Sequence record: NC_055712.1
Length of the DNA: 64,000 bases
DNA from: Escherichia phage phT4A
Reading direction: 5' to 3' (one strand)
Under the pieces are notes generated by a model that saw only the letters and a program-made list of their open reading frames with translations, ran no database searches and was not told the origin of the DNA. Made by a program: the position numbers and the translations under genes. Shown in pieces: positions 10,753 to 41,421 of the stretch. Within the stretch, counting starts at the first letter, position 1. Each line of letters starts with the position of its first letter.

Positions 10753-11778
10753 TCATTTTTTCGGTGATTTGTCCCACGACTTAAATCGAAGTTTTGCCGT
10801 GAGTCCAGAAACAGTATTATCTTTCAAATACTGCATAATTTCAAGTTTAGTTGCGCCGTCCGTTTTTATCATTTCGTTGATATCTTTGGAAGGCCACGGG
10901 CATTTATCCCACATTACAACCTTTTCTCCAGCCTCAATCAATTTAAAGAGGCGGTGAGTAGTATCCGGATGACGTGCTTCATTGTCAAGAACCCAGACAC
11001 GCATATTTTTATACGGAACCTCAGAAAGTGCAAGCTGTCCACCAGTGATAGCGCCAGCATTATCAACAAACAGGCTATCTAATGGCCCCTCAAGAAGATA
11101 AACCGTTTTTAGCGGATCTATCGTATCCTGTCCGTAAATCTTGGTTGATTCTTCACAGGCTTTGATTGTGATATATTTCGACTTTGCCCCGTCGCGTAAA
11201 GCACGACCCTGGAAAGATTCAATTTTCCCTTTCTTATCGAAGATAGGGATCACTAATCTCGGTTCTGGTTTTGCGATCGGATAGGTATCCGGATTCACCG
11301 TATTAACCAGTTGTTGCCATTCGCGAGTAAACCACAACCGATCCCACTTGTCACGGGGGATACAACGATTCTGCACATATTTTATGATCGGATGTTCATC
11401 CGGCAAGGTATCTAACCTTTCGCAGAATTGAAGAGTAGGAATAAATTTCTTCTCTTCCTTCGGTTGTTCTGTATGCGTTGGCTTTAACGAATTGCGATCC
11501 TTAAACGATTCCATGAGATAATCACGGTAATCGTCTGGATAATATTCTTTCAGGAATACGCTAAACGGTACACCATAACCACAGTTAAAACAACCACAAT
11601 TCATATGATCACCCTTTTTAGAAGGGTAGATCCAAAATCGTTTTTTGTACTTGTCTTTCATTGAGTCGCCGCAAATAGGGCAACGCGCATTGATGCTTAA
11701 TGCCCCCGATTTACGAACGATTTCGCTTTGAGGCAGTGATCCCATGATTCGGGTTGCAAATTCTATATCAAGATACAT
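10753..11778 (-). CDS. 61: DNA primase (gp61)
   Basis: 341 aa; N-terminal zinc finger CPICGDS, TOPRIM-like core. Confidence 0.9.
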   Translation of the reverse strand: MYLDIEFATRIMGSLPQSEIVRKSGALSINARCPICGDSMKDKYKKRFWIYPSKKGDHMNCGCFNCGYGVPFSVFLKEYYPDDYRDYLMESFKDRNSLKPTHTEQPKEEKKFIPTLQFCERLDTLPDEHPIIKYVQNRCIPRDKWDRLWFTREWQQLVNTVNPDTYPIAKPEPRLVIPIFDKKGKIESFQGRALRDGAKSKYITIKACEESTKIYGQDTIDPLKTVYLLEGPLDSLFVDNAGAITGGQLALSEVPYKNMRVWVLDNEARHPDTTHRLFKLIEAGEKVVMWDKCPWPSKDINEMIKTDGATKLEIMQYLKDNTVSGLTAKLRFKSWDKSPKK

Positions 11779-12097: not shown

Positions 12098-12316
12098 TCA
12101 AGAACTTACTTGCTTTTCTGTTCCGTCAAGCATTAACTTCCAACCACGAAATGCCTGTTTAAACGAATAATTTATTGCAATATCAATTTTATCAGAACCT
12201 TTTCGACGATTCTGATAAACGGTCGCGTTGTCACTCATATACATGATACAAATTGGAAACCATGTATAATCGTTAGCAGTAGCCCAGATAGTGATATTCA
12301 GCGGAGGAATTATCAT
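12098..12316 (-). CDS. hypothetical protein
   Basis: 72 aa ORF. Confidence 0.4.
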   Translation of the reverse strand: MIIPPLNITIWATANDYTWFPICIMYMSDNATVYQNRRKGSDKIDIAINYSFKQAFRGWKLMLDGTEKQVSS

Positions 12317-12801
12317 TTCTTTTTCCTTTTCCCTGCACGGGTAACGCCTAATACTTTCGGCCCGATGTTGGTTACTGCTCCAGTAGTCACACCAGAAGCA
12401 ATCTTTTCTGTATCGCCGCCAGAATCACCCGCGACCATATCCTCTAACATGCGCCCCTTATCATAATATTCTTTGAGGCGTGGAACGTTCAACATGATTT
12501 CTTCATGCTCTTGTTCTGTCAGATTGTAGCGATTGCGTAGGGTATCATATGAACTGGTTAAGTTCATAAACCCACTCATATACGGAACAGCATTCATTCT
12601 ACGCTTGATATGGCGTACTGAACGATGAAAAGGAGAATACGCTTCTAACTCTTCTTTTGTTTTGGGGTTGCGAATTACTTCGCCTTGTCCATCAAGGATC
12701 CCCAGCTTGTAAGCAGTCCATTCAGTCCAGGGCTTTTTGAGTAGCCGGATCATCCGGACGCTATATGTTAAATCCATATTTTTAACTAATTGATCACTCA
12801 T
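12313..12801 (-). CDS. hypothetical protein (basic C-terminus)
   Basis: 162 aa ORF. Confidence 0.5.
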   Translation of the reverse strand: MSDQLVKNMDLTYSVRMIRLLKKPWTEWTAYKLGILDGQGEVIRNPKTKEELEAYSPFHRSVRHIKRRMNAVPYMSGFMNLTSSYDTLRNRYNLTEQEHEEIMLNVPRLKEYYDKGRMLEDMVAGDSGGDTEKIASGVTTGAVTNIGPKVLGVTRAGKRKKK

Positions 12802-12806
12802 GATTA

Positions 12807-13583
12807 TTACTCTATTGTGAAAGTGAATAAATCAGATTTGGTTTCAGGTTCAAACTCCATACAAACAACCTCGCATAGTGGTTTAACCCCTTTCCAATCC
12901 TCCAGGTAATACCCAGTATCTATACCGCATCCAGGATTCATAACGAGGCCAGTTTCATCAAGAAACTTTTTGCATTTACTTGATGTGGTGCTGTCATCTT
13001 GTCGGAAACAGTGTGTTTTCGAATACCGGAAATTTGCAGACATTTGAGGGATTATGAAAGTTCCCTGACGTGCGATCTGTGATGCACGTTCGATTACTTT
13101 ATACTCAAATTCTGCCCCTGTATACTTACCCTTAAAATCAGAGGTTTTGATTTTACCAAAAGGCGGGTTACTGATCGCCATATCAAACACCTGATTAAAT
13201 TCAGTTGTTAAGGCGTCTCCATGCACCCAGGAGGCTTCTGGTACGATACGCTTACCTAACTCATAGTATGTGTGATTTAACTCAACACAGACGATTTCAC
13301 GCGGCGTATTGTACATCATGTAATGAACCATAGCGAAAGATAACCCACCGATACCAGCACACAGGTCAATAACACTTCCACCTGTGCAAGCATCGATTGT
13401 GAAATCGCGAGCAAGTCCAATAGGGGTAAAGAACGCCCCTAATTCAGAATTGTTTGTAAACGCGCCTTCATGAAAGTTTTCAATAATGAACAACTTCTCT
13501 TCGTAAGTTAGCGCTTTGTCAGAGTGAACCAGATCCATTATCTGATTGTGTTTCTTGGTTTCCGCTTTCGTTAACTTTGCCAT
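12807..13583 (-). CDS. putative N6-adenine-type (gamma-class-like) methyltransferase
   Basis: Motif order FFTP (X) -> VIDLCAGIGG (I) -> NPPFG (IV); start placed at MAKLTK (ATG 13583). Confidence 0.65.
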   Translation of the reverse strand: MAKLTKAETKKHNQIMDLVHSDKALTYEEKLFIIENFHEGAFTNNSELGAFFTPIGLARDFTIDACTGGSVIDLCAGIGGLSFAMVHYMMYNTPREIVCVELNHTYYELGKRIVPEASWVHGDALTTEFNQVFDMAISNPPFGKIKTSDFKGKYTGAEFEYKVIERASQIARQGTFIIPQMSANFRYSKTHCFRQDDSTTSSKCKKFLDETGLVMNPGCGIDTGYYLEDWKGVKPLCEVVCMEFEPETKSDLFTFTIE

Positions 13584-13911
13584 TTTCCCAGCTATACAAT
13601 AATGTTGATTCATTCGGATAGAATTCCCATCCGTCCACGTATCCGGTTTCCCAGTCAGTAGTTTGTTCAAAACCACAGATCCATTCATACACGCCAGGAG
13701 GCATTTCGACAGAATCAGGAAGCCCGATATCTTCCGCGCTCCGTCCACATTCAAAGAATGCATCATGAATGAATGGTCGAGATAATACCGTAACATAACC
13801 TTCATCGTCAACAGCTACGATCCAGCGGGAACTATGAGGACTATCGAACTTCGGTTCTTCTTCGTCTGCGTCAGCTTTTATTTCAGCCTTACAAAAATCT
13901 AAATTCATCAT
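13519..13911 (-). CDS. hypothetical acidic Trp-rich protein (overlaps methyltransferase 5' end)
   Basis: 130 aa ORF, protein-like composition. Confidence 0.5.
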   Translation of the reverse strand: MMNLDFCKAEIKADADEEEPKFDSPHSSRWIVAVDDEGYVTVLSRPFIHDAFFECGRSAEDIGLPDSVEMPPGVYEWICGFEQTTDWETGYVDGWEFYPNESTLLYSWENGKVNESGNQETQSDNGSGSL

Positions 13912-14195
13912 TTCAAACCCTCTTTAACACCCTCTTTCATAGCTTTCCAGGTAGAACCTGCTTCACCATTCAGGGCGGCAAATACAAATAATAAGATAGC
14001 AAGGACAAGATTCACGCCAGCAATCACCATGATTTTGCTATACACGAAAATGTAAGGCATTGCCACCACCCACCAACTAAAAGAATTACCAGTTACGATG
14101 TTGAGTGCTGCAAGTAAGAAAGTGATAACGAATGCGATTTTCATAATGTCCTCCTTTGTTATGATTAAGGTATCATCTTTTTTGAAAGAATGCAA
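13908..14195 (-). CDS. small membrane protein (2 TM)
   Basis: 95 aa, two hydrophobic helices. Confidence 0.5.
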   Translation of the reverse strand: MHSFKKDDTLIITKEDIMKIAFVITFLLAALNIVTGNSFSWWVVAMPYIFVYSKIMVIAGVNLVLAILLFVFAALNGEAGSTWKAMKEGVKEGLK

Positions 14196-14205
14196 TACCT
14201 ATAGA

Positions 14206-14232
14206 TACAAAAAAGCCCCGAAAGGGGCTTAA
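14206..14232 (-). terminator. terminator hairpin AAGCCCCTTTCGGGGCTT plus U-run (minus sense)
   Basis: GC stem followed by T-run downstream of gene 14237-14491. Confidence 0.5.
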
Positions 14233-14883: not shown

Positions 14884-16320
14884 TTAAAATTGAATGTCAG
14901 ATTTTGCAATCTGTGCCATTTTATCACGTCGGGTAGATTCAGCCTGTTTAATCATCGGGCCTTGTGTCTGTTCTACTGTTTTAGGCATAGTGTTGCCGTG
15001 GTAGTCAGATTTAAACCCGTATTCGCTGTTGTCGGTATCCATCCAGCGCTGATTACCCTTTCGAACTTCCAACTTGAACTTGTTGAAAGTGTTCTTATCG
15101 CCATAACGGGATTTGATTTGCTTGAACAGTTGCATACCCTGATCAGCTAACTCTTCCGTCTCGATTACAGCTAACATAAAATCAGCCGTAGCAGGTAAAC
15201 CAGCGGATTCCGCAACATCACCCATACTCACATCCGAACTATCCCATGCAGAACGCCCAACCTGTGCGCCTGTCCACATTACGGTATTAGTTTCAACAGC
15301 AAGACCGCGTAGTTCTTCGGCAATTGCTTTAACCAGAATATAGGTATTCTCAGCACCTTTAACACGGGTTGAAGTACAGATCCCCAGGTAATCGACAATG
15401 ATCACATCCGGAACAAACTGTTTCTTCAATTTAAGCTCTTTCACAAGCGCTCTAAAGTGGTTTGCACCTGCACCCGATGTAGGGTACTGCTTGACCACCA
15501 AACGCCCAACCTTACCCGCTTTAAGGCGCTCCATTTTGTTCTTATAGTCTGCGTATGTAATGTTCCCTTCGTCGATGTCATCCATAGTCACATCAAGAAG
15601 GTTAGCATCGATACGCTTAGAGCAAACATGCTCTGCCATTTCCATAGAAATGTAAAGAACGTTTTTACCCTGTTGCAGATAATCAGCCGCAAGAGAACAT
15701 AAGCCCAGTGATTTACCAACGTTAACACCAGCCATGATGATATTCAGTGTACCACGTTCCGCGCCGCCTTTGGTGATTGCGTTCAGGATCGGGATACCAA
15801 ACGGAATTTTCATCGCCTTCGATTGGTAAAGCATCCACCGTTTTTCATAATCTTCGAAATAGTCATGACCTACCGAACTATCGAATGAAATTGCTAATGC
15901 TTCCTCCATGATTTCAGGGATAGCCCCAACACCAGGAAGTTTCTTGTTCTGTTCTGCCAGTGGTTTTTCTGCGTTCGCCTGGATTTCGATTGCACGAGAA
16001 AGAGCACGATACATTGCTTTGTCTTTGCAATATGTTTCCGTTTCCTTCATTAGCCAATCTAAATCTTCTGGCGCATTTTTCAGCGACTGAATCGCCTTTT
16101 TCGTGTCTTCGTAGACTACATCACTTAGATTTCGTTTGTCAAGCGCAACCTCTAAAGCAGTTTTTGACGGAATGCCGTTGAATTCCTGTACATGTTTATC
16201 AATGAGGTCAAACAAAACTTGTGCATTGCCTTCAAAATATTCCTTTTTCAGATGAGGCCATGCTTGGACAAAATACGTCCCGTTATAAATCAGGTTAGAA
16301 AATATTGTATCAACGATCAT
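14884..16320 (-). CDS. 41: replicative DNA helicase (gp41, DnaB-like)
   Basis: 478 aa; Walker A GVNVGKS; RecA-like fold motifs. Confidence 0.9.
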   Translation of the reverse strand: MIVDTIFSNLIYNGTYFVQAWPHLKKEYFEGNAQVLFDLIDKHVQEFNGIPSKTALEVALDKRNLSDVVYEDTKKAIQSLKNAPEDLDWLMKETETYCKDKAMYRALSRAIEIQANAEKPLAEQNKKLPGVGAIPEIMEEALAISFDSSVGHDYFEDYEKRWMLYQSKAMKIPFGIPILNAITKGGAERGTLNIIMAGVNVGKSLGLCSLAADYLQQGKNVLYISMEMAEHVCSKRIDANLLDVTMDDIDEGNITYADYKNKMERLKAGKVGRLVVKQYPTSGAGANHFRALVKELKLKKQFVPDVIIVDYLGICTSTRVKGAENTYILVKAIAEELRGLAVETNTVMWTGAQVGRSAWDSSDVSMGDVAESAGLPATADFMLAVIETEELADQGMQLFKQIKSRYGDKNTFNKFKLEVRKGNQRWMDTDNSEYGFKSDYHGNTMPKTVEQTQGPMIKQAESTRRDKMAQIAKSDIQF

Positions 16321-17868: not shown

Positions 17869-17968
17869 NNNNNNNNNNNNNNNNNNNNNNNNNNNNNNNN
17901 NNNNNNNNNNNNNNNNNNNNNNNNNNNNNNNNNNNNNNNNNNNNNNNNNNNNNNNNNNNNNNNNNNNN
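17869..17968. other. assembly gap (100 N), true length unknown
   Basis: Run of N; polymerase C-terminus (roughly 110 aa by comparison with T4 gp43) is missing. Confidence 0.9.
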
Positions 17969-22984: not shown

Positions 22985-23650
22985 TTACTTGAATGTGCTA
23001 CTTGCTTCAAGTACGACGACGTAAGCAACGCCGTTATCAGAAGAGAATTTTGCGGCCCCTTTGGAGGAAATCTCTACTTTGTAATCGCTGTTGATGAACT
23101 GCATGTTATCAATCTTCATATCGAAATTGAAAACATTGTCGCCTTCATACTCACCTACTTCAACGGAGAAAGTTGATTGACTTTCTTTGCTTTTCGCGGT
23201 GATGACCAGTTTACCATCAATCGGTTCAACGGACAGGTCGGTCAGTTTCATCATGCGAGACGCTTTGATCAGTTTTTCGAAATCGTTAGCGGTAATCTGG
23301 AAAATCAGATCTGCTACTGGCATCACCAGACGTTTTTTCGGTTTCGGGATCGTTGTTGCGTCTGCTGAACGTTCGATGATCTTCATCTTGTCGCCGCGAA
23401 TCACGATTTCACCAGTGGAAATATCATGAGTGATTTCCGCGTCAGTGCCGACGATGTTCAGCATGTTCAGGAATGAGTTGAGATCGTAGATACCAACATC
23501 TTCATCAATCACATCAGCAATTTCAGCTTCTGCGTATACAACGCTGTTGATTGATTTCGTCATGATGAATGAACCTTTGGTCAACATGATCGAAGAGTTG
23601 ATTTGAGAAAAGTTTTTCAGGATATCAATAGTTTGTTTAGAGAATTTCAT
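22985..23650 (-). CDS. 45: sliding clamp (gp45)
   Basis: 221 aa; collinear with recalled T4 gp45. Confidence 0.85.
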   Translation of the reverse strand: MKFSKQTIDILKNFSQINSSIMLTKGSFIMTKSINSVVYAEAEIADVIDEDVGIYDLNSFLNMLNIVGTDAEITHDISTGEIVIRGDKMKIIERSADATTIPKPKKRLVMPVADLIFQITANDFEKLIKASRMMKLTDLSVEPIDGKLVITAKSKESQSTFSVEVGEYEGDNVFNFDMKIDNMQFINSDYKVEISSKGAAKFSSDNGVAYVVVLEASSTFK

Positions 23651-29548: not shown

Positions 29549-29822
29549 TTACGTTAATATTTTAAACGAAGAAGGGCGATATAAAGCCCTTTATAAAATG
29601 TTTGGATTTGATGTGATTGTTGCAGTACAGCAGGATTCCTATAACGAGTATGTGTCATTGGGGTTCACTCTGATTAAAGACAACTATCACGAAACAAAGG
29701 TTTGGACATTTACTGTCCTGAATAGCATGGATGAAGATTCCGTGATATACTGCTTTGATAGCACGATTACAAACATGATTAGTGATATATCCCAAAGGAT
29801 AATTGATGAAACTCAAATTTAA
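29534..29822 (+). CDS. hypothetical protein
   Basis: ORF between gp47 and gp46; start set at MEIVDY. Confidence 0.4.
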
Positions 29823-31497
29823 AACATTGACTTATCAAAATATCTTGTCGGTTGGTAACGTACCGATCGTCATTGATTTTGATTCAGCAAAGAAAACCCT
29901 CATTACGGGTAAAAACGGCGGTGGTAAATCCACCATGATCGAAGCGCTTACATATGCTCTCTTTGGTAAGTCATTTCGCGATCTGAAAGTCGGACAACTG
30001 GTGAACAGTATCAACAAGAAAAAATGTCTGGTTGAACTGTTGATCGAATACGGCAATGATGAATATAAAATCATCCGTGGACAAAAGCCGAAAGTATTTG
30101 AGATCTGGAAGAATGGCGAAAAACTGCCGGAAGATTCAGCCGCTGGTGATTATCAGTCACAGCTTGAATCAATGTTGAATATTAACCTGGTGGGCTTTAA
30201 ACAGGTTATCGTTCTGGGTACTGCTGGTTATGTACCTTTCATGGAACTAAAAACACCAGATCGCCGTAAACTGGTTGAAGATTTGTTGTCTTTGTCTATC
30301 ATCAGTGAAATGGACAAACTGAACAAATCATACATCCGTGGTGTTAACCGTGAACTGGATACGCTTTCAATGCAGATTGGACACGTACAACAGCAGATCA
30401 CAACACATCAAAAGTTCATTGACGAACAACGGGCAAAAGCAAATCAGAATACGGCGCGTTACCAGGATATCTACGATTCCCACGTAGAAACAGCAAAACA
30501 GATTAAAGCGCAATTAGTTGAACTTCAAACCCAGATCGCAGAATGTGTGATCAATGGTGAAGACCAAACAGCAAATATTCAAAAACTGCGTGATGGCTAT
30601 ACACGCCTCTCAATGAACGTAGAACAGTTGCAGCGTCTTGAGGTGATGTATCGCAAGGGTGGTGAATGTCCGGCCTGTAAACAGCCAATTAGCCCCACTC
30701 CTGAACGCATGGAAGAAATTGCCGAGAACATTAAAAACGGTACTCAGAAACTTACGCTGATTAAGAACAAGCAAGATCAGCTACAGAAAATCATGGATGA
30801 TTTACTAACACAACAACGTACACTAAATGGGCTGAAATCCAAATACGAATCACTACGCGGTACACTTCAAAATGAAGTTGCAGCGGCTAAACGTGTTCGG
30901 GCTGTCATGGATAAAGCACAGGAAGACGTGGTGATCGACGAATCCCCAGTTGAAAAACTCCGTGAAGATGAAAAGGAACTTGATTCTAAACGTTCTGGAT
31001 TTGTCAAGGAAAAATATTTTAGAGGTATTGTTACGGATCTGCTGAAAGATTCCGGCGTTAAAGCGAGCATCGTTAAACGTTATATTCCTTACTTCAATAA
31101 ACAGATTGCGTACTATCTGGATCTGTTGGGTGCTGATTATCAGTTCACTCTGGATGACGAATTTAACGAATCGATTAAATCGCTGGGTCGTAATGATTTT
31201 AGTTACGCATCGTTCAGTCAAGGCGAAAGAGCACGTATTAACCTTGCTTTATTGTTCACCTGGCGCGATGTAACCAGTAAAATTTCTGGTGTTGATTTAT
31301 CCCTTCTGATCCTGGATGAAGTGTACGATGGTGCAATTGATCGTGATGGTAGTTTTGCTGTAAAAGCACTATTGGATGGGATAAATGGTAACGTAATTGT
31401 TATCAGTCATCAGGATTTGGATCCGGAAGATTTCGACCGACATATTGTTATGTCAAAAGTCGGTCGATTCTCTAAAATGGAAGTTAAGAAGTCTTAA
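29803..31497 (+). CDS. 46: recombination endonuclease subunit (gp46, Rad50/SbcC-like ATPase)
   Basis: 564 aa; Walker A GKNGGGKST, coiled-coil middle, signature/Walker B at C-terminus. Confidence 0.9.
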   Translation: MMKLKFKTLTYQNILSVGNVPIVIDFDSAKKTLITGKNGGGKSTMIEALTYALFGKSFRDLKVGQLVNSINKKKCLVELLIEYGNDEYKIIRGQKPKVFEIWKNGEKLPEDSAAGDYQSQLESMLNINLVGFKQVIVLGTAGYVPFMELKTPDRRKLVEDLLSLSIISEMDKLNKSYIRGVNRELDTLSMQIGHVQQQITTHQKFIDEQRAKANQNTARYQDIYDSHVETAKQIKAQLVELQTQIAECVINGEDQTANIQKLRDGYTRLSMNVEQLQRLEVMYRKGGECPACKQPISPTPERMEEIAENIKNGTQKLTLIKNKQDQLQKIMDDLLTQQRTLNGLKSKYESLRGTLQNEVAAAKRVRAVMDKAQEDVVIDESPVEKLREDEKELDSKRSGFVKEKYFRGIVTDLLKDSGVKASIVKRYIPYFNKQIAYYLDLLGADYQFTLDDEFNESIKSLGRNDFSYASFSQGERARINLALLFTWRDVTSKISGVDLSLLILDEVYDGAIDRDGSFAVKALLDGINGNVIVISHQDLDPEDFDRHIVMSKVGRFSKMEVKKS

Positions 31498-32209
31498 ACT
31501 TGCAGTTATCAAAATGCCAGCGATTCATATTGCTGGCATCACCAGATTTATTGCAATATGGACAAATCAACTGCTTCCTTTTTGCTGGCGTCTTTCTATT
31601 TGGGTTATTTCTGCAATACGGTATATGTGAACGCAGATAATGTAATGACGATTCTGTTCCGCAATATGGACAATTGCCCCGTTCTTTAGGTACGTTTCCG
31701 TTCTTATGGGAACACGGGATACCCTCGAACTTATGTTTCAATCCTTCATTACCTGGTTTCAGTTTGCAGTTGTCGAAGTGCCAACGAGTCATATTTCCAA
31801 TTATACCTGATTTTCCGCAATGAGGACACACAACCCTTTCTTGTTGCTTTTTGGCTTTACTCATTCGCTGTCTGGTTTCTTCGGTGAACTCTCTATTCCT
31901 ATGTGCTTCTGACGCCTTTTTCTTTAACCATTCATAGCGGCGGTTAGCTGTTCTTTCCTTTGATCTATTGGAACCAACTGTTAACATATGTGCTGCAAAA
32001 ACAAGTTTGTTGTTTCCTGGGTACATCTTGACTAATAACAGATGCGCAATATAATGTTGACGCGCTGTAAGATTAACCAAATTATCATCAGAATCTGTTC
32101 CACCTATGCACTTAGGTATGATATGGTGTGATTCTGTATATCCATCATACTGCGTTTGTTTAGCATGTTCTATGATAGAGTTATAAATTTTGTTATAGTT
32201 CATAAACAT
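31484..32209 (-). CDS. freestanding HNH homing endonuclease with C-terminal zinc-finger repeats
   Basis: HHIIPKCIGGTDSDDNLVNLTARQHYIAH; repeated CP.CxKSG...RWHFDNCK modules; paralog of 9556-10215. Confidence 0.8.
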   Translation of the reverse strand: MFMNYNKIYNSIIEHAKQTQYDGYTESHHIIPKCIGGTDSDDNLVNLTARQHYIAHLLLVKMYPGNNKLVFAAHMLTVGSNRSKERTANRRYEWLKKKASEAHRNREFTEETRQRMSKAKKQQERVVCPHCGKSGIIGNMTRWHFDNCKLKPGNEGLKHKFEGIPCSHKNGNVPKERGNCPYCGTESSLHYLRSHIPYCRNNPNRKTPAKRKQLICPYCNKSGDASNMNRWHFDNCKFKTS

Positions 32210-32527: not shown

Positions 32528-34237
32528 ATGATCACCGAATCCAAAATGACTTATCAGGAAGCACTGAAAGTTTTGGGCGCAACTGGTAGCGAAACCAGCG
32601 CTGAAATGTCCAGACTCTTCAAACGTGCATCCTTACGCAATCACCCCGACCGTGGTGGTAGCAATGAATTAATGCAGAAAATCAACCAGGCTTACGATGT
32701 CGTTACAAAAACTGGGCCTAGTGGCGCACGTTCTGAGACTGCTGGTGATGTTCGAGCACGTTATGCCCGTCAAAAGAAAGAATGGGAAGAAAAAGTTGAT
32801 GCTTACTTTGTAGTGGCGAAAAACTATTTCAGCACCAAATTTAACGCACAGGAATTTGCGGATTACTTCACCAAATACACTGGATTGCCTACCACTTTCA
32901 AACAGGAAGTAACAAAAGGTAGTCACGGTGTTTATGCTTCGTTCCGTTTCACTTCTGGTGATGCTTACTTTGATTTCGGTTTCAACTGCACCCCTCCGAA
33001 TGGACAAGGGTTAGCCGCTCCGGATTCATCTGCACTGGGTAGCGTTTCTGTTAGTACCTTTGTACTGGTTGGAACTAAAAAACACAAAATGGCAAGCCGT
33101 GATTATCAATGGGGCAAAAACCCGGATAAGATCACTCCGGAAAGCCTGTTCCCGTCTAAAAAACTGGAAAGCATTTTCAGCCCTGTACAGAAAAATATCA
33201 AATACAAACGTGCTGACTACCTGGCATCATTCCGTAAGCTGTTAGGCGCTGACGTTAGCGGAAACGATATCTTTGTTGAAGTTGGTACACTGAAAGTTCG
33301 TTTCTATCGTCACGTATTCATGCGCAAAGGTGCTTATGTGTTTAGCGCGGTGTATGATCCTGCTGTATCGAAGTATCGTCCGGCTGCACAACTTCGCGGA
33401 ACCATGTTCGAAGACGAGGACGGCGCTTGCCTGGATATGATCGTTGATACGTTCAAAGAGTTGCAGAAACTGAAACCGAGTGTTCAAGGCGTTGTGAACG
33501 CGATCGATAAGATGAACGCAGAGTTTGCGGCGGGGCATCGTTCAGCATCTTTTGTTAAACGTGTAGCTGCTCAGGAAGCCGCACCGAAGCCAGAAGAGAA
33601 GCCAAAACGCACTGTTAATCGTATCGGTAAAGAGGAATATTTCGCAGCACTAAAAGATATTGGTGCTCGTGTAATGCCTACCAGCGGTTATGTTGAATTT
33701 GATAACGGCGCTGGTGTTACTATCAACTTCAAGCGTATTGTTGTAAACCGTAAAGCATACTACTCATTCAGTAGCTTTGATTTCACGTACTCTGGTCAGA
33801 AACACATTGAGTGGTTGAAAGGAATCGATATCGCAGAAGATACCAAAGGCGCAAGCATTAGCCTACTCACTGATACTCTGAAATCTTTACGTGGGATCTC
33901 TGACTGGAACACTGTTAAGAGCGCTTTAGATCAAATGAATTCTAACTTCAAGGCGGGTAAATTCTCCGCACCTCATGTGAAGAAGGAAGCAGAGCAAAAA
34001 GCACCGAAACAGAAAGACGAAATCGGCGCACAGCCTACCAAACCACAGGCGGCTAAGAAAGATACACCAGAAGTGGAAAAATCACAGGCTGTTCATGCAG
34101 CACGTGAGAAAGCGAATATGAACAACACTATTCGTAAAATGATGACTATGTTAGTCAAAGCACAGCGCAAAGACACTCCGGAAGATATCAAGAAGGAAGT
34201 TGATGCAGCAATTCAATTGTGGCGCTTGACTTATTAA
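32528..34237 (+). CDS. J-domain (DnaJ-like) protein with internally repeated C-terminal modules
   Basis: N-terminal J-domain with HPD motif (LRNHPDRGG...QKINQAYDVV); two or three related ~130-aa modules; host-optimal codons. Confidence 0.8.
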   Translation: MITESKMTYQEALKVLGATGSETSAEMSRLFKRASLRNHPDRGGSNELMQKINQAYDVVTKTGPSGARSETAGDVRARYARQKKEWEEKVDAYFVVAKNYFSTKFNAQEFADYFTKYTGLPTTFKQEVTKGSHGVYASFRFTSGDAYFDFGFNCTPPNGQGLAAPDSSALGSVSVSTFVLVGTKKHKMASRDYQWGKNPDKITPESLFPSKKLESIFSPVQKNIKYKRADYLASFRKLLGADVSGNDIFVEVGTLKVRFYRHVFMRKGAYVFSAVYDPAVSKYRPAAQLRGTMFEDEDGACLDMIVDTFKELQKLKPSVQGVVNAIDKMNAEFAAGHRSASFVKRVAAQEAAPKPEEKPKRTVNRIGKEEYFAALKDIGARVMPTSGYVEFDNGAGVTINFKRIVVNRKAYYSFSSFDFTYSGQKHIEWLKGIDIAEDTKGASISLLTDTLKSLRGISDWNTVKSALDQMNSNFKAGKFSAPHVKKEAEQKAPKQKDEIGAQPTKPQAAKKDTPEVEKSQAVHAAREKANMNNTIRKMMTMLVKAQRKDTPEDIKKEVDAAIQLWRLTY

Positions 34238-38054: not shown

Positions 38055-38154
38055 NNNNNNNNNNNNNNNNNNNNNNNNNNNNNNNNNNNNNNNNNNNNNN
38101 NNNNNNNNNNNNNNNNNNNNNNNNNNNNNNNNNNNNNNNNNNNNNNNNNNNNNN
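38055..38154. other. assembly gap (100 N), true length unknown
   Basis: Run of N; roughly the C-terminal third of NrdA (and possibly further genes such as nrdB) is missing. Confidence 0.9.
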
Positions 38155-41037: not shown

Positions 41038-41421
41038 AATCTGTTTATGACTATTGGCGTTCCGGGTAGTGGAAAAACTACCTGGGCGCATGAGAAAGCC
41101 CGTGAATTGGGTAATACTGTTACGATCTCTCGCGATGATCTGCGTAGCTCTTTGTATAATGCNNNNNNNNNNNNNNNNNNNNNNNNNNNNNNNNNNNNNN
41201 NNNNNNNNNNNNNNNNNNNNNNNNNNNNNNNNNNNNNNNNNNNNNNNNNNNNNNNNNNNNNNGATACCAGGACAGATTTTGAAGTAAAAGAAGAAATTTT
41301 GTTTGACAAGATTTTAGATAAGTATTATCCTGTTATTGCAGTGGACGATAGAGACACTCCGGTCGGGATGTGGCGAGCAAACGGGATTCCGTGCTTACAA
41401 GTCGATTATGGTGATTTCTGA
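41035..41421 (+). CDS. pseT: polynucleotide kinase/3'-phosphatase (Pnk), middle part lost in gap
   Basis: N-terminal kinase P-loop GVPGSGKTTWA; C-terminal DTRTDFEVKEEILF...AVDDRDTPVGMWRANGIPCLQVDYGDF matches T4 Pnk C-terminus. Confidence 0.8.
   Translation: MNLFMTIGVPGSGKTTWAHEKARELGNTVTISRDDLRSSLYNXXXXXXXXXXXXXXXXXXXXXXXXXXXXXXXXXXDTRTDFEVKEEILFDKILDKYYPVIAVDDRDTPVGMWRANGIPCLQVDYGDF
41163..41262. other. assembly gap (100 N), true length unknown
   Basis: Run of N; about 200 aa of Pnk missing by comparison with T4. Confidence 0.9.

Follow-up and report, generated by a model that had tools for sequence, protein, structure and literature searches.

A gamma-type methyltransferase of a Slopekvirus genome segment with a candidate clamp-binding C-terminal tail

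The methyltransferase gene analysed here encodes a 258-aa protein that, judged from its profile matches and genomic contexts, is most likely a DNA adenine methylase producing N6-methyladenine in the phage's own DNA. It lies in the window, the whole 64,000-nucleotide stretch of the Escherichia phage phT4A record NC_055712.1, which is a Slopekvirus segment of the KP27/KP15-like Klebsiella phage type. The best overall explanation, an orphan gamma-type DNA m6A methylase that is docked on a clamp and serves against host defences, has in our estimate a probability of about 0.5. The protein would be an orphan, mobile-element-borne, SAM-dependent amino-methyltransferase of gamma architecture, expressed within the cluster of replication genes, between those for primase gp61 and helicase gp41. 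Its short C-terminal tail would attach it to the sliding clamp used by the replisome copying the element, namely gp45 in this T4-like phage and the beta clamp of the host in relatives carried by prophages and plasmids. Such docking would stand in for the DNA-binding domain that the protein lacks and would link methylation with replication, and newly made phage DNA would carry the mark before host defences that sense methylation (R-M, BREX, MADS-like) act. We infer the DNA substrate, the adenine N6 target atom, the clamp binding and the anti-defence role; observed directly are the gene with its start, motifs, fold and family, and the enrichment of clamp-type peptides at the C-termini of that family. 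The clamp-peptide pattern across the family is new here, and as a pattern of sequences it suggests a testable lead rather than a demonstrated mechanism.

Results

Location and start of the methyltransferase gene

The region from 12300 to 14200 shares 99.8% identity with Klebsiella phage KP1LMA and 99.3% with KP27. All the genes around the methyltransferase gene are on the minus strand, in a hyperplastic stretch between gp61 and gp41 (Table 1). A tightly packed gene run from 14195 to 12098 holds the methyltransferase gene and an acidic gene, both of which are already annotated in KP27 (KP27_035 and KP27_036). The terminator-like hairpin just upstream of the run is a terminator in the KP27 annotation too. 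A sigma-70 and terminator scan returned consensus-level sites only. Both open reading frames of the first-pass annotation are in the ORF listing exactly as described there, and the motifs are at the places it gave.

The methyltransferase frame is contained in a long ORF with a TTG start. Met77 of this ORF, encoded by the ATG at 13583..13581, gives the 258-aa product, the N-terminus of which is of the MAKLTK type. An N-terminus of this type ([MV][AST]K[LI][ST]K) opens most of the 43 aligned homologues, which are found in unrelated genomic contexts, and Lys3 and Lys6 are nearly invariant in the alignment. The KP27 annotation agrees on the start, with KP27_035 given as a "DNA methyltransferase" of 777 nt. 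Thus, the conserved N-terminus and the KP27 annotation identify Met77, which had been proposed as the most plausible start, as the true one. The 76 codons upstream of Met77 had been described as non-protein-like, and they look so because they are an alternative reading frame of the acidic gene. The ATG at 13538, which gives a 20-nt overlap and is used in the annotation of Margaery, and the 334-aa TTG-start ORF as a gene product were both rejected, since the conserved N-terminus of the family begins at 13583.

Table 1. Positions of the methyltransferase gene, its motifs and neighbouring features in the window
Feature	Position	Strand	Remarks
Primase gp61	10753..11778	minus	
Methyltransferase CDS	12807..13583	minus	258 aa and stop; KP27_035 equivalent; PHROG 3820 member
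Long ORF, TTG start	12807..13811	minus	334 aa; contains the methyltransferase frame (ORF listing)
C-terminal tail EPETKSDLFTFTIE, residues 245-258	12810..12851	minus	Acidic/Pro linker and terminal [FL]-[TD]-F-x-I-E; candidate gp45-binding epitope
Motif IV, NPPFG, residues 139-143	13155..13169	minus	Catalytic amino-methyltransferase motif; invariant S138 N139 P140 P141 F142 G143
Motif I, DLCAGIGG, residues 73-80	13344..13367	minus	AdoMet-binding loop; invariant D73 C75 A76 G77 I78 G79
Motif X, FFTP, residues 51-54	13422..13433	minus	Invariant family stretch GAFFTP (G49 A50 F51 F52 T53 P54)
Out-of-frame overlap, 65 nt	13519..13583	minus	Methyltransferase MAKLTKAETKKHNQIMDLVHS; other frame, acidic tail ENGKVNESGNQETQSDNGSGSL
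Acidic 130-aa gene (DUF8046/phrog_4953)	13519..13911	minus	KP27_036 equivalent
Terminator-like hairpin	14213..14230	minus	Just upstream of the gene run; terminator in the KP27 annotation too
Helicase gp41	14884..16320	minus	
gp45 sliding clamp	22985..23650	minus	Proposed (inferred) docking partner; Pfam gp45-slide_C E 1.7e-22, DNA_PPF E 1.3e-11

Motifs, fold and enzyme class

The linear order of motifs claimed for the protein is that of the gamma class, X, I (FxGxG-like) and IV ((N/D/S)PP(Y/F)), and it is present with NPPF as the core of motif IV. The invariance of the motif residues (Table 1) was judged on the alignment of 43 homologues. The AlphaFold2 model of the methyltransferase (pLDDT 89.7) shows a single Rossmann-type domain, and its longest fold alignments are those with gamma-class DNA methylases. 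Neither a separate target-recognition domain in the fold model nor a specificity subunit among the nearby genes was found. Thus, the protein lacks one of the features that define classical gamma enzymes, and the gamma-class reading stands, qualified by the absence of a recognition domain. The first-pass annotation had further set the enzyme against the Dam usual in T4-like phages. This part stands in so far as Pfam MethyltransfD12 (alpha-class Dam) gave no match at E<=0.1 and the motif is NPPF, not the DPPY that goes with the motif order I, TRD, IV. However, the enzyme does not replace Dam, as phages of the KP15/KP27 type carry Dam and Dcm too.

Family and genomic contexts

The METHYLTRANSFERASE is a member of a large, sharply delimited family (PHROG 3820) that occurs in phages, prophages and plasmid-like islands. 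A total of 960 homologues were found, and clustering at 50% gave 1214 cluster representatives at E<=1e-3 and 406 at E<=1e-30. The GTDB species genomes contained 248 matches, and most of the 80 that were retained are from Alpha-, Beta- and Gammaproteobacteria; several are from Bacteroidota and a few from other phyla. Identity is ~50% across hosts as different as Klebsiella, Pseudomonas and Rhizobium. The gene is labelled 'DNA methyltransferase' in more than 100 phage records, and some depositors call homologues 'RNA methylase' or 'release factor glutamine methyltransferase'.

The homologues have several kinds of neighbours. In Pseudomonas lambdoid prophages, the gene adjoins an ERF recombinase gene within the repressor-to-integrase operon; elsewhere it adjoins other DNA methylase genes in islands, and in Krischvirus it is located between the baseplate genes gp8 and gp9. 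The replication-cluster, ERF-adjacent and methylase-neighbour contexts agree with a DNA methylase. No experiment on any member of PHROG 3820 was found in the literature searched, and the homologue phiOC_p393 is absent from the enzymes tested in the phage methylase papers of the Radlinska group. Phi2LM21_p66, which may or may not belong to the family, was reported to be inactive in E. coli.

C-terminal tails and the sliding clamp

The catalytic core of the methyltransferase stops at about residue 243, and the part that follows varies with the type of element. Over the last two blocks of the model the pLDDT drops to 78 and then to 60, and the window protein ends in ...SDLFTFTIE. Comparison of the homologues P0001-P0015 showed that the terminal peptide is kept, while the linker before it differs in both length and sequence. 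Ends of the form [FL]-[TD]-F-x-I-E occur in the Slopekvirus/Pseudotevenvirus group, Pectobacterium phage POP12 and Pantoea phage Phynn, and the homologue of the Krischvirus ECD7 ends in ...TLSDLFDI.

Clamp-type peptides are enriched at the C-termini of the family. The pattern Q-phi-x-phi-phi, in which phi is a hydrophobic residue, is found in the last 12 residues of 64 of the 269 family members, typically as QLSLF, QLDLF, QLTLF or QLALF. The rest of those proteins contains only five internal matches, from which ~0.0006 would be expected per tail. The linkers before the motif range from ~16 to ~150 residues and show no sequence conservation. The homologue in a 52-kb Rhizobium phage, for example, contains GQLSLFGDAA. 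The motif is missing in the T4-superfamily and jumbo phages phiM12, vB_OspM_OC, Variovorax V45v66 and the Aeromonas phages, and several large-phage homologues have no tail at all. QL[SD]LF, which is said to have been described by Dalrymple et al. in 2001 as the canonical bacterial beta-clamp-binding pentapeptide, is absent from the window protein.

The proposed partner of the window protein is the phage's own clamp, gp45, the gene of which is also in the window (Table 1). Ligands of gp45 have been described as hydrophobic-acidic C-termini on variable linkers (PMC2988020). The known gp45 ligands of this phage type have the ends SLNDLFGDW for gp43 (read from KP27, as the window is masked at that gene), TLEDFL for the window gp55 and TLDGFM for the window gp33. 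The window tail EPETKSDLFTFTIE fits the hydrophobic-acidic description, but it does not fit the [ST]-L-x-[DG]-phi-phi of gp43, gp55 and gp33, and the likeness is loose. The ECD7 tail, by comparison, is a good fit to the gp45-ligand pattern. From these tails we lean somewhat towards putative clamp binding for the family, whereas for the window protein itself clamp binding is a possibility that we place a little below even odds. It may be, as a tentative generalization that we would sooner doubt than adopt, that the family consists of minimal DNA adenine methyltransferases with a swappable C-terminal peptide docking on the replicating clamp of the element, QL[SD]LF for beta and a hydrophobic-acidic end for gp45.

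The same peptides could instead be degradation tags (ssrA-like, read by ClpXP) that keep the methylase short-lived, or fold-back elements, which we regard as rather unlikely. The tails of 71 of the 269 family members end in AA, including 35 of the 64 motif-bearing tails, so part of the tail signal could be a ClpXP-type degron. Several Rhizobiales homologues (L027, L028, L031, L043, L050, L057, L070, L082, L088) also have ANDN a few residues before ...LFGEAA, and ANDN...AA recalls alphaproteobacterial ssrA tags. However, QLSLF and QLDLF are the canonical beta-clamp pentapeptide, and many tails end directly in QLSLF, QLTLF or QLALF without AA. The tails of the T4-like phages have neither AA nor ANDN, yet they keep the L/F-rich acidic end. 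Degron and clamp functions are compatible and not mutually exclusive.

Profile matches and likely substrate

The methyltransferase matches phrog_3820 ('DNA methyltransferase') over nearly its full length (E 4.1e-129; residues 1-257 align with positions 1-254 of the 255-position profile). Among the named profiles that match, PADLOC Mad2 scores best (E 2.3e-14, 51 bits), covering residues 34-182, from motif X through motif VIII; several type II MTase profiles also match. In Pseudomonas, Mad2 is needed for m6A at TCAGNNNNTCC (bioRxiv 10.1101/2023.03.30.534895). Outside motifs I-IV, the Pfam matches are to DNA-methylase families only. N6_Mtase matches at threshold (20.7 bits vs. a cut-off of 20.4, residues 41-145) and Eco57I below it (18.3 bits vs. 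25.3, residues 127-188); among the 43 family members, the two profiles match 20 and 13, respectively (E<=0.01). The Mad2 match, together with these DNA-methylase-only matches outside the generic core, thus favours a DNA methylase.

It is unlikely that the protein is instead an enzyme of the MTS/METTL5/PrmC type that methylates RNA (m6A or m2G in rRNA/tRNA) or protein glutamine and serves to modify the host translation apparatus rather than DNA. The best Pfam, NCBIfam and PDB sequence matches are indeed generic or RNA/protein methyltransferases (MTS, PrmC, PH1948, RsmC), and the first-pass annotation had regarded best matches to rRNA or protein methyltransferases as speaking against its own reading. 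MTS, the PH1948/METTL5-like proteins and RsmC formally touch on this point, but the matches are weak and lie within motifs I-IV only. Pfam MTS (PF05175) reaches 24.5 bits vs. a cut-off of 23 on residues 65-146 only, and although 43 of 43 family members match it, the match says little about the substrate because MTS is a generic core domain. For PH1948 in the PDB, a single-sequence search gives E 0.013 and a search with the family profile 7.5e-5, and METTL5 gives E 0.03, again over residues 65-146 only. The RsmC and HemK matches are likewise weak and confined to motifs I-IV, and the NCBIfam PrmC match is far below its cut-off. In contrast, the Mad2 profile scores much better.

The acidic gene and the overlap

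The acidic Trp-rich ORF of 130 aa is present as the first-pass annotation described it, and it is a real gene (phrog_4953, E 6.6e-67). Its product has a pI of 4.05, 28 Asp and Glu vs. 7 Lys and Arg, a net charge of about -21 and 5 Trp. The precomputed domain PF26219.1 is found in 13 of 13 homologues of the acidic protein, and one UniRef name is DUF8046 domain-containing protein; the local Pfam copy gave no match for the window acidic protein. The overlap with the methyltransferase gene, estimated earlier at 20-65 nt, measures 65 nt if counted from the ATG at 13583 and 20 nt if counted from the following ATG, at 13538. It is conserved in other genera: Citrobacter phage Margaery has 65 nt and Pantoea phage Phynn 38 nt. 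The conserved core of the acidic protein comprises residues ~20-108 and is followed by a polar tail (~110-130), in which residues 117-130 are predicted to be disordered (pLDDT below 50). This tail exists only in phages where the ORF enters the methyltransferase gene and is missing in phiTE, Phapecoctavirus and CWW26. In our reading, the overlap is an overprinted read-through: constraint acts on the frame of the methyltransferase N-terminus, and the last ~21 acidic codons are a by-product of reading into the methyltransferase gene.

The two genes might form one module, in which the DUF8046 protein is a DNA-mimic anti-restriction partner or a specificity or regulatory subunit and the overlap enforces co-expression; we hold this to be very unlikely. 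Adjacency and overlap are kept in Slopekvirus, Pseudotevenvirus (RB43, Margaery), Cronobacter phage vB_CsaM_leB and Pantoea phage Phynn, even though the DUF8046 proteins are only ~52-57% identical, and the strong acidity of the protein would suit such a partner. However, Krischvirus, Aeromonas phages, Pseudomonas prophages and plasmid-like islands carry the methyltransferase but no DUF8046 gene with it. Conversely, DUF8046 is found without the methyltransferase in phiTE, where its neighbour is a DNA ligase gene, in Phapecoctavirus, where it adjoins RNA-ligase-like genes, and in CWW26, where an exonuclease gene is close by, and the overlap tail that is missing in these phages is the part predicted to be disordered in the window protein. 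A fold search of the acidic protein gave no match pointing to a DNA mimic. No functional tie between the two genes was found, each being widespread without the other; the acidic gene is a separate, independent DUF8046 module.

Constraints from published KP15 and KP27 data

KP15 and KP27 both carry the methyltransferase gene, the KP15 homologue being KP-KP15_gp027. EcoRI, EcoRV and NsiI are blocked by m6A within their sites. The KP15/KP27 genome paper gives only Dam and Dcm and states that none besides these were found (PMC5219037). Thus, the present gene was overlooked there, and since Dam and Dcm are encoded elsewhere in phages of this type, its product is a third methyltransferase. The virion DNA of KP15 is reported to be resistant only to HindIII, NcoI and PaeI, for which it has no sites, and to EcoRII (Dcm), and is almost completely degraded by DpnI (PMC3620542). 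This list implies cleavage by EcoRI, EcoRV, NsiI and SnaBI, so adenine methylation, if any, is site-restricted or partial; a blanket modification is excluded and a defined site is possible. KP27 DNA, in comparison, shows an unexplained resistance to EcoRI, NsiI, SnaBI and DpnI (PMC3620542). As the gene is common to both phages, its presence alone does not explain the difference in resistance.

A non-specific adenine methylase of the Hia5 or EcoGII kind, blanketing the phage DNA with m6A, would agree with the missing target-recognition domain and with the unusually high identity between hosts, which suggests a host-independent target, but it is largely rejected as highly improbable because EcoRI, EcoRV and NsiI are implied to cut the virion DNA of KP15, which has a homologue (PMC3620542).

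Discussion

The window protein resembles several known methyltransferases in part. Compared with the gamma N6-adenine enzymes of the HsdM, M.TaqI and Eco57I kinds, it has only 258 aa, no HsdS gene is nearby, and a C-terminal short linear motif takes the place of the DNA-reading domain. The resemblance to Mad2 of the MADS defence of Pseudomonas aeruginosa spans only positions 258-397 of the 492 in the profile. Near the methyltransferase gene there is no other gene of the mad1-8 operon; its neighbours are phage replication genes. As it is on a phage and not in a host defence island, it would counter MADS-like systems rather than belong to one. The alignment with the METTL5/PH1948 (COG2263) rRNA m6A enzymes comprises ~170 residues (the core of motifs I-VIII), whereas the phage family has an additional 45 conserved N-terminal residues and insertions after motif IV, and no Trm112-like partner is evident for the phage enzyme. 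Like T4 Dam and the Dam and Dcm of KP15/KP27, it is a phage-encoded orphan methylase of a kind thought to protect phage DNA, but it differs from T4 Dam (alpha-class, DPPY) in class, motif order and Pfam family.

With respect to the tail, some family members have exactly the QLSLF or QLDLF C-terminus of beta-clamp clients such as Pol II/IV/V, MutS and Hda, whereas the window protein has LFTFTIE, not QLxLF. In concept, the proposed arrangement would be like that of eukaryotic DNMT1 and PCNA, in which a DNA-modifying enzyme is tethered to the sliding clamp via a short terminal peptide. Judged by title and abstract, none of the papers that the literature searches returned describes a clamp-binding DNA methylase of a bacterium or phage.

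As a gene, the methyltransferase is ordinary and widely annotated, and apparently no member of its family has been characterised. If the tails do bind clamps, a methylase can manage without a DNA-binding domain, and mobile elements would keep their protective methylation in step with replication. In that case the family would represent a compact m6A writer addressable through the clamp and a prokaryotic and viral counterpart of DNMT1-PCNA coupling, providing a replication-coupled escape from methylation-sensing defences. The enzyme would also be a third candidate for the unexplained restriction resistance of the KP27 type, although the resistant and the sensitive phage alike carry the gene.

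Restriction resistance of KP27 and KP15

The virion DNA of Klebsiella phage KP27 is resistant to EcoRI, NsiI, SnaBI and even DpnI, whereas that of the near-identical KP15 is not (PMC3620542, PMC5219037). The methyltransferase gene is common to both phages, and thus its presence alone cannot explain the difference in resistance between them.

Neighboring and other genes

The acidic protein encoded by the gene that overlaps the methyltransferase gene received no family from the local Pfam copy, but the precomputed family PF26219.1 (DUF8046) is assigned to all its database homologues, a mismatch that may reflect a difference of version or threshold. The promoter-like match lies within this DUF8046 gene, and the methyltransferase start follows ~200 nt downstream of it. 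On the other side of the methyltransferase gene, the gp61.1 homologue is listed by several GenBank records as a "capsid protein" or "major capsid protein", which is probably a propagated annotation error.

The Pfam DnaJ match of the 569-aa protein scores 20.8 bits, under threshold. The homing endonuclease gene is located downstream of a 564-aa ORF, which by its position is a candidate gp46-like gene. Three runs of N, each of exactly 100 nt, mask parts of the window. The first of these falls within the 3' portion of the DNA polymerase gp43 gene, and the C-terminal clamp-binding peptide of gp43 was therefore taken from KP27.

Coordinates of features in the window
Feature	Coordinates	Strand	Remarks
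gp61.1 homologue, phrog_2086	12313-12801	-	Immediately downstream of methyltransferase gene
Acidic protein (DUF8046)	13519-13911	-	
Sigma-70-like promoter match	13782-13811	-	TTGACG-18-TATTAT, 10/12; consensus match only
N run	17869-17968		
564-aa ORF	29803-31497		
Homing endonuclease gene, phrog_655	31484-32209	-	Repeated Cys-rich zinc-ribbon-like segments
569-aa protein, phrog_7739	32528-34237	+	N-terminal J-domain-like segment with HPDRGG
N run	38055-38154		
N run	41163-41262		

Unusual homologues and C-terminal tails

The methyltransferase of Dickeya phage JA29 (locus L100, 1501-2670) is a version of 389 aa with ~150 additional C-terminal residues, and its gene stands in a row with two more annotated methyltransferase genes. 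A homologue with 84% identity and the LFTFTIE tail is found on a 178,077-bp contig (L011, NZ_JBHSCL010000010.1) in the assembly of Flagellimonas marina, a marine member of the Bacteroidota. From the size of the contig and the identity, the gene appears to belong to a contaminating phage genome of Pseudotevenvirus/Karamvirus-like type and not to Flagellimonas itself.

A third class of tails has a basic terminal peptide (...RRQRLDRKAAVERKARMAL) in place of the clamp-like motif, and comprises the homologues P0033, P0051, P0080, P0089, P0107, P0108 and L013. In Rhizobiales homologues (L027, L028, L031, L043, L050, L057, L070, L082 and L088), ANDN occurs a few residues upstream of the end ...LF[GD][ED]AA. 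Taken together, these two elements are similar to the alphaproteobacterial ssrA tag, with its SspB site and the AA end for ClpX. In the Rhizobiales methyltransferase tails, such an ssrA-like tag would overlie the clamp motif, the peptide proposed to dock on the sliding clamp.
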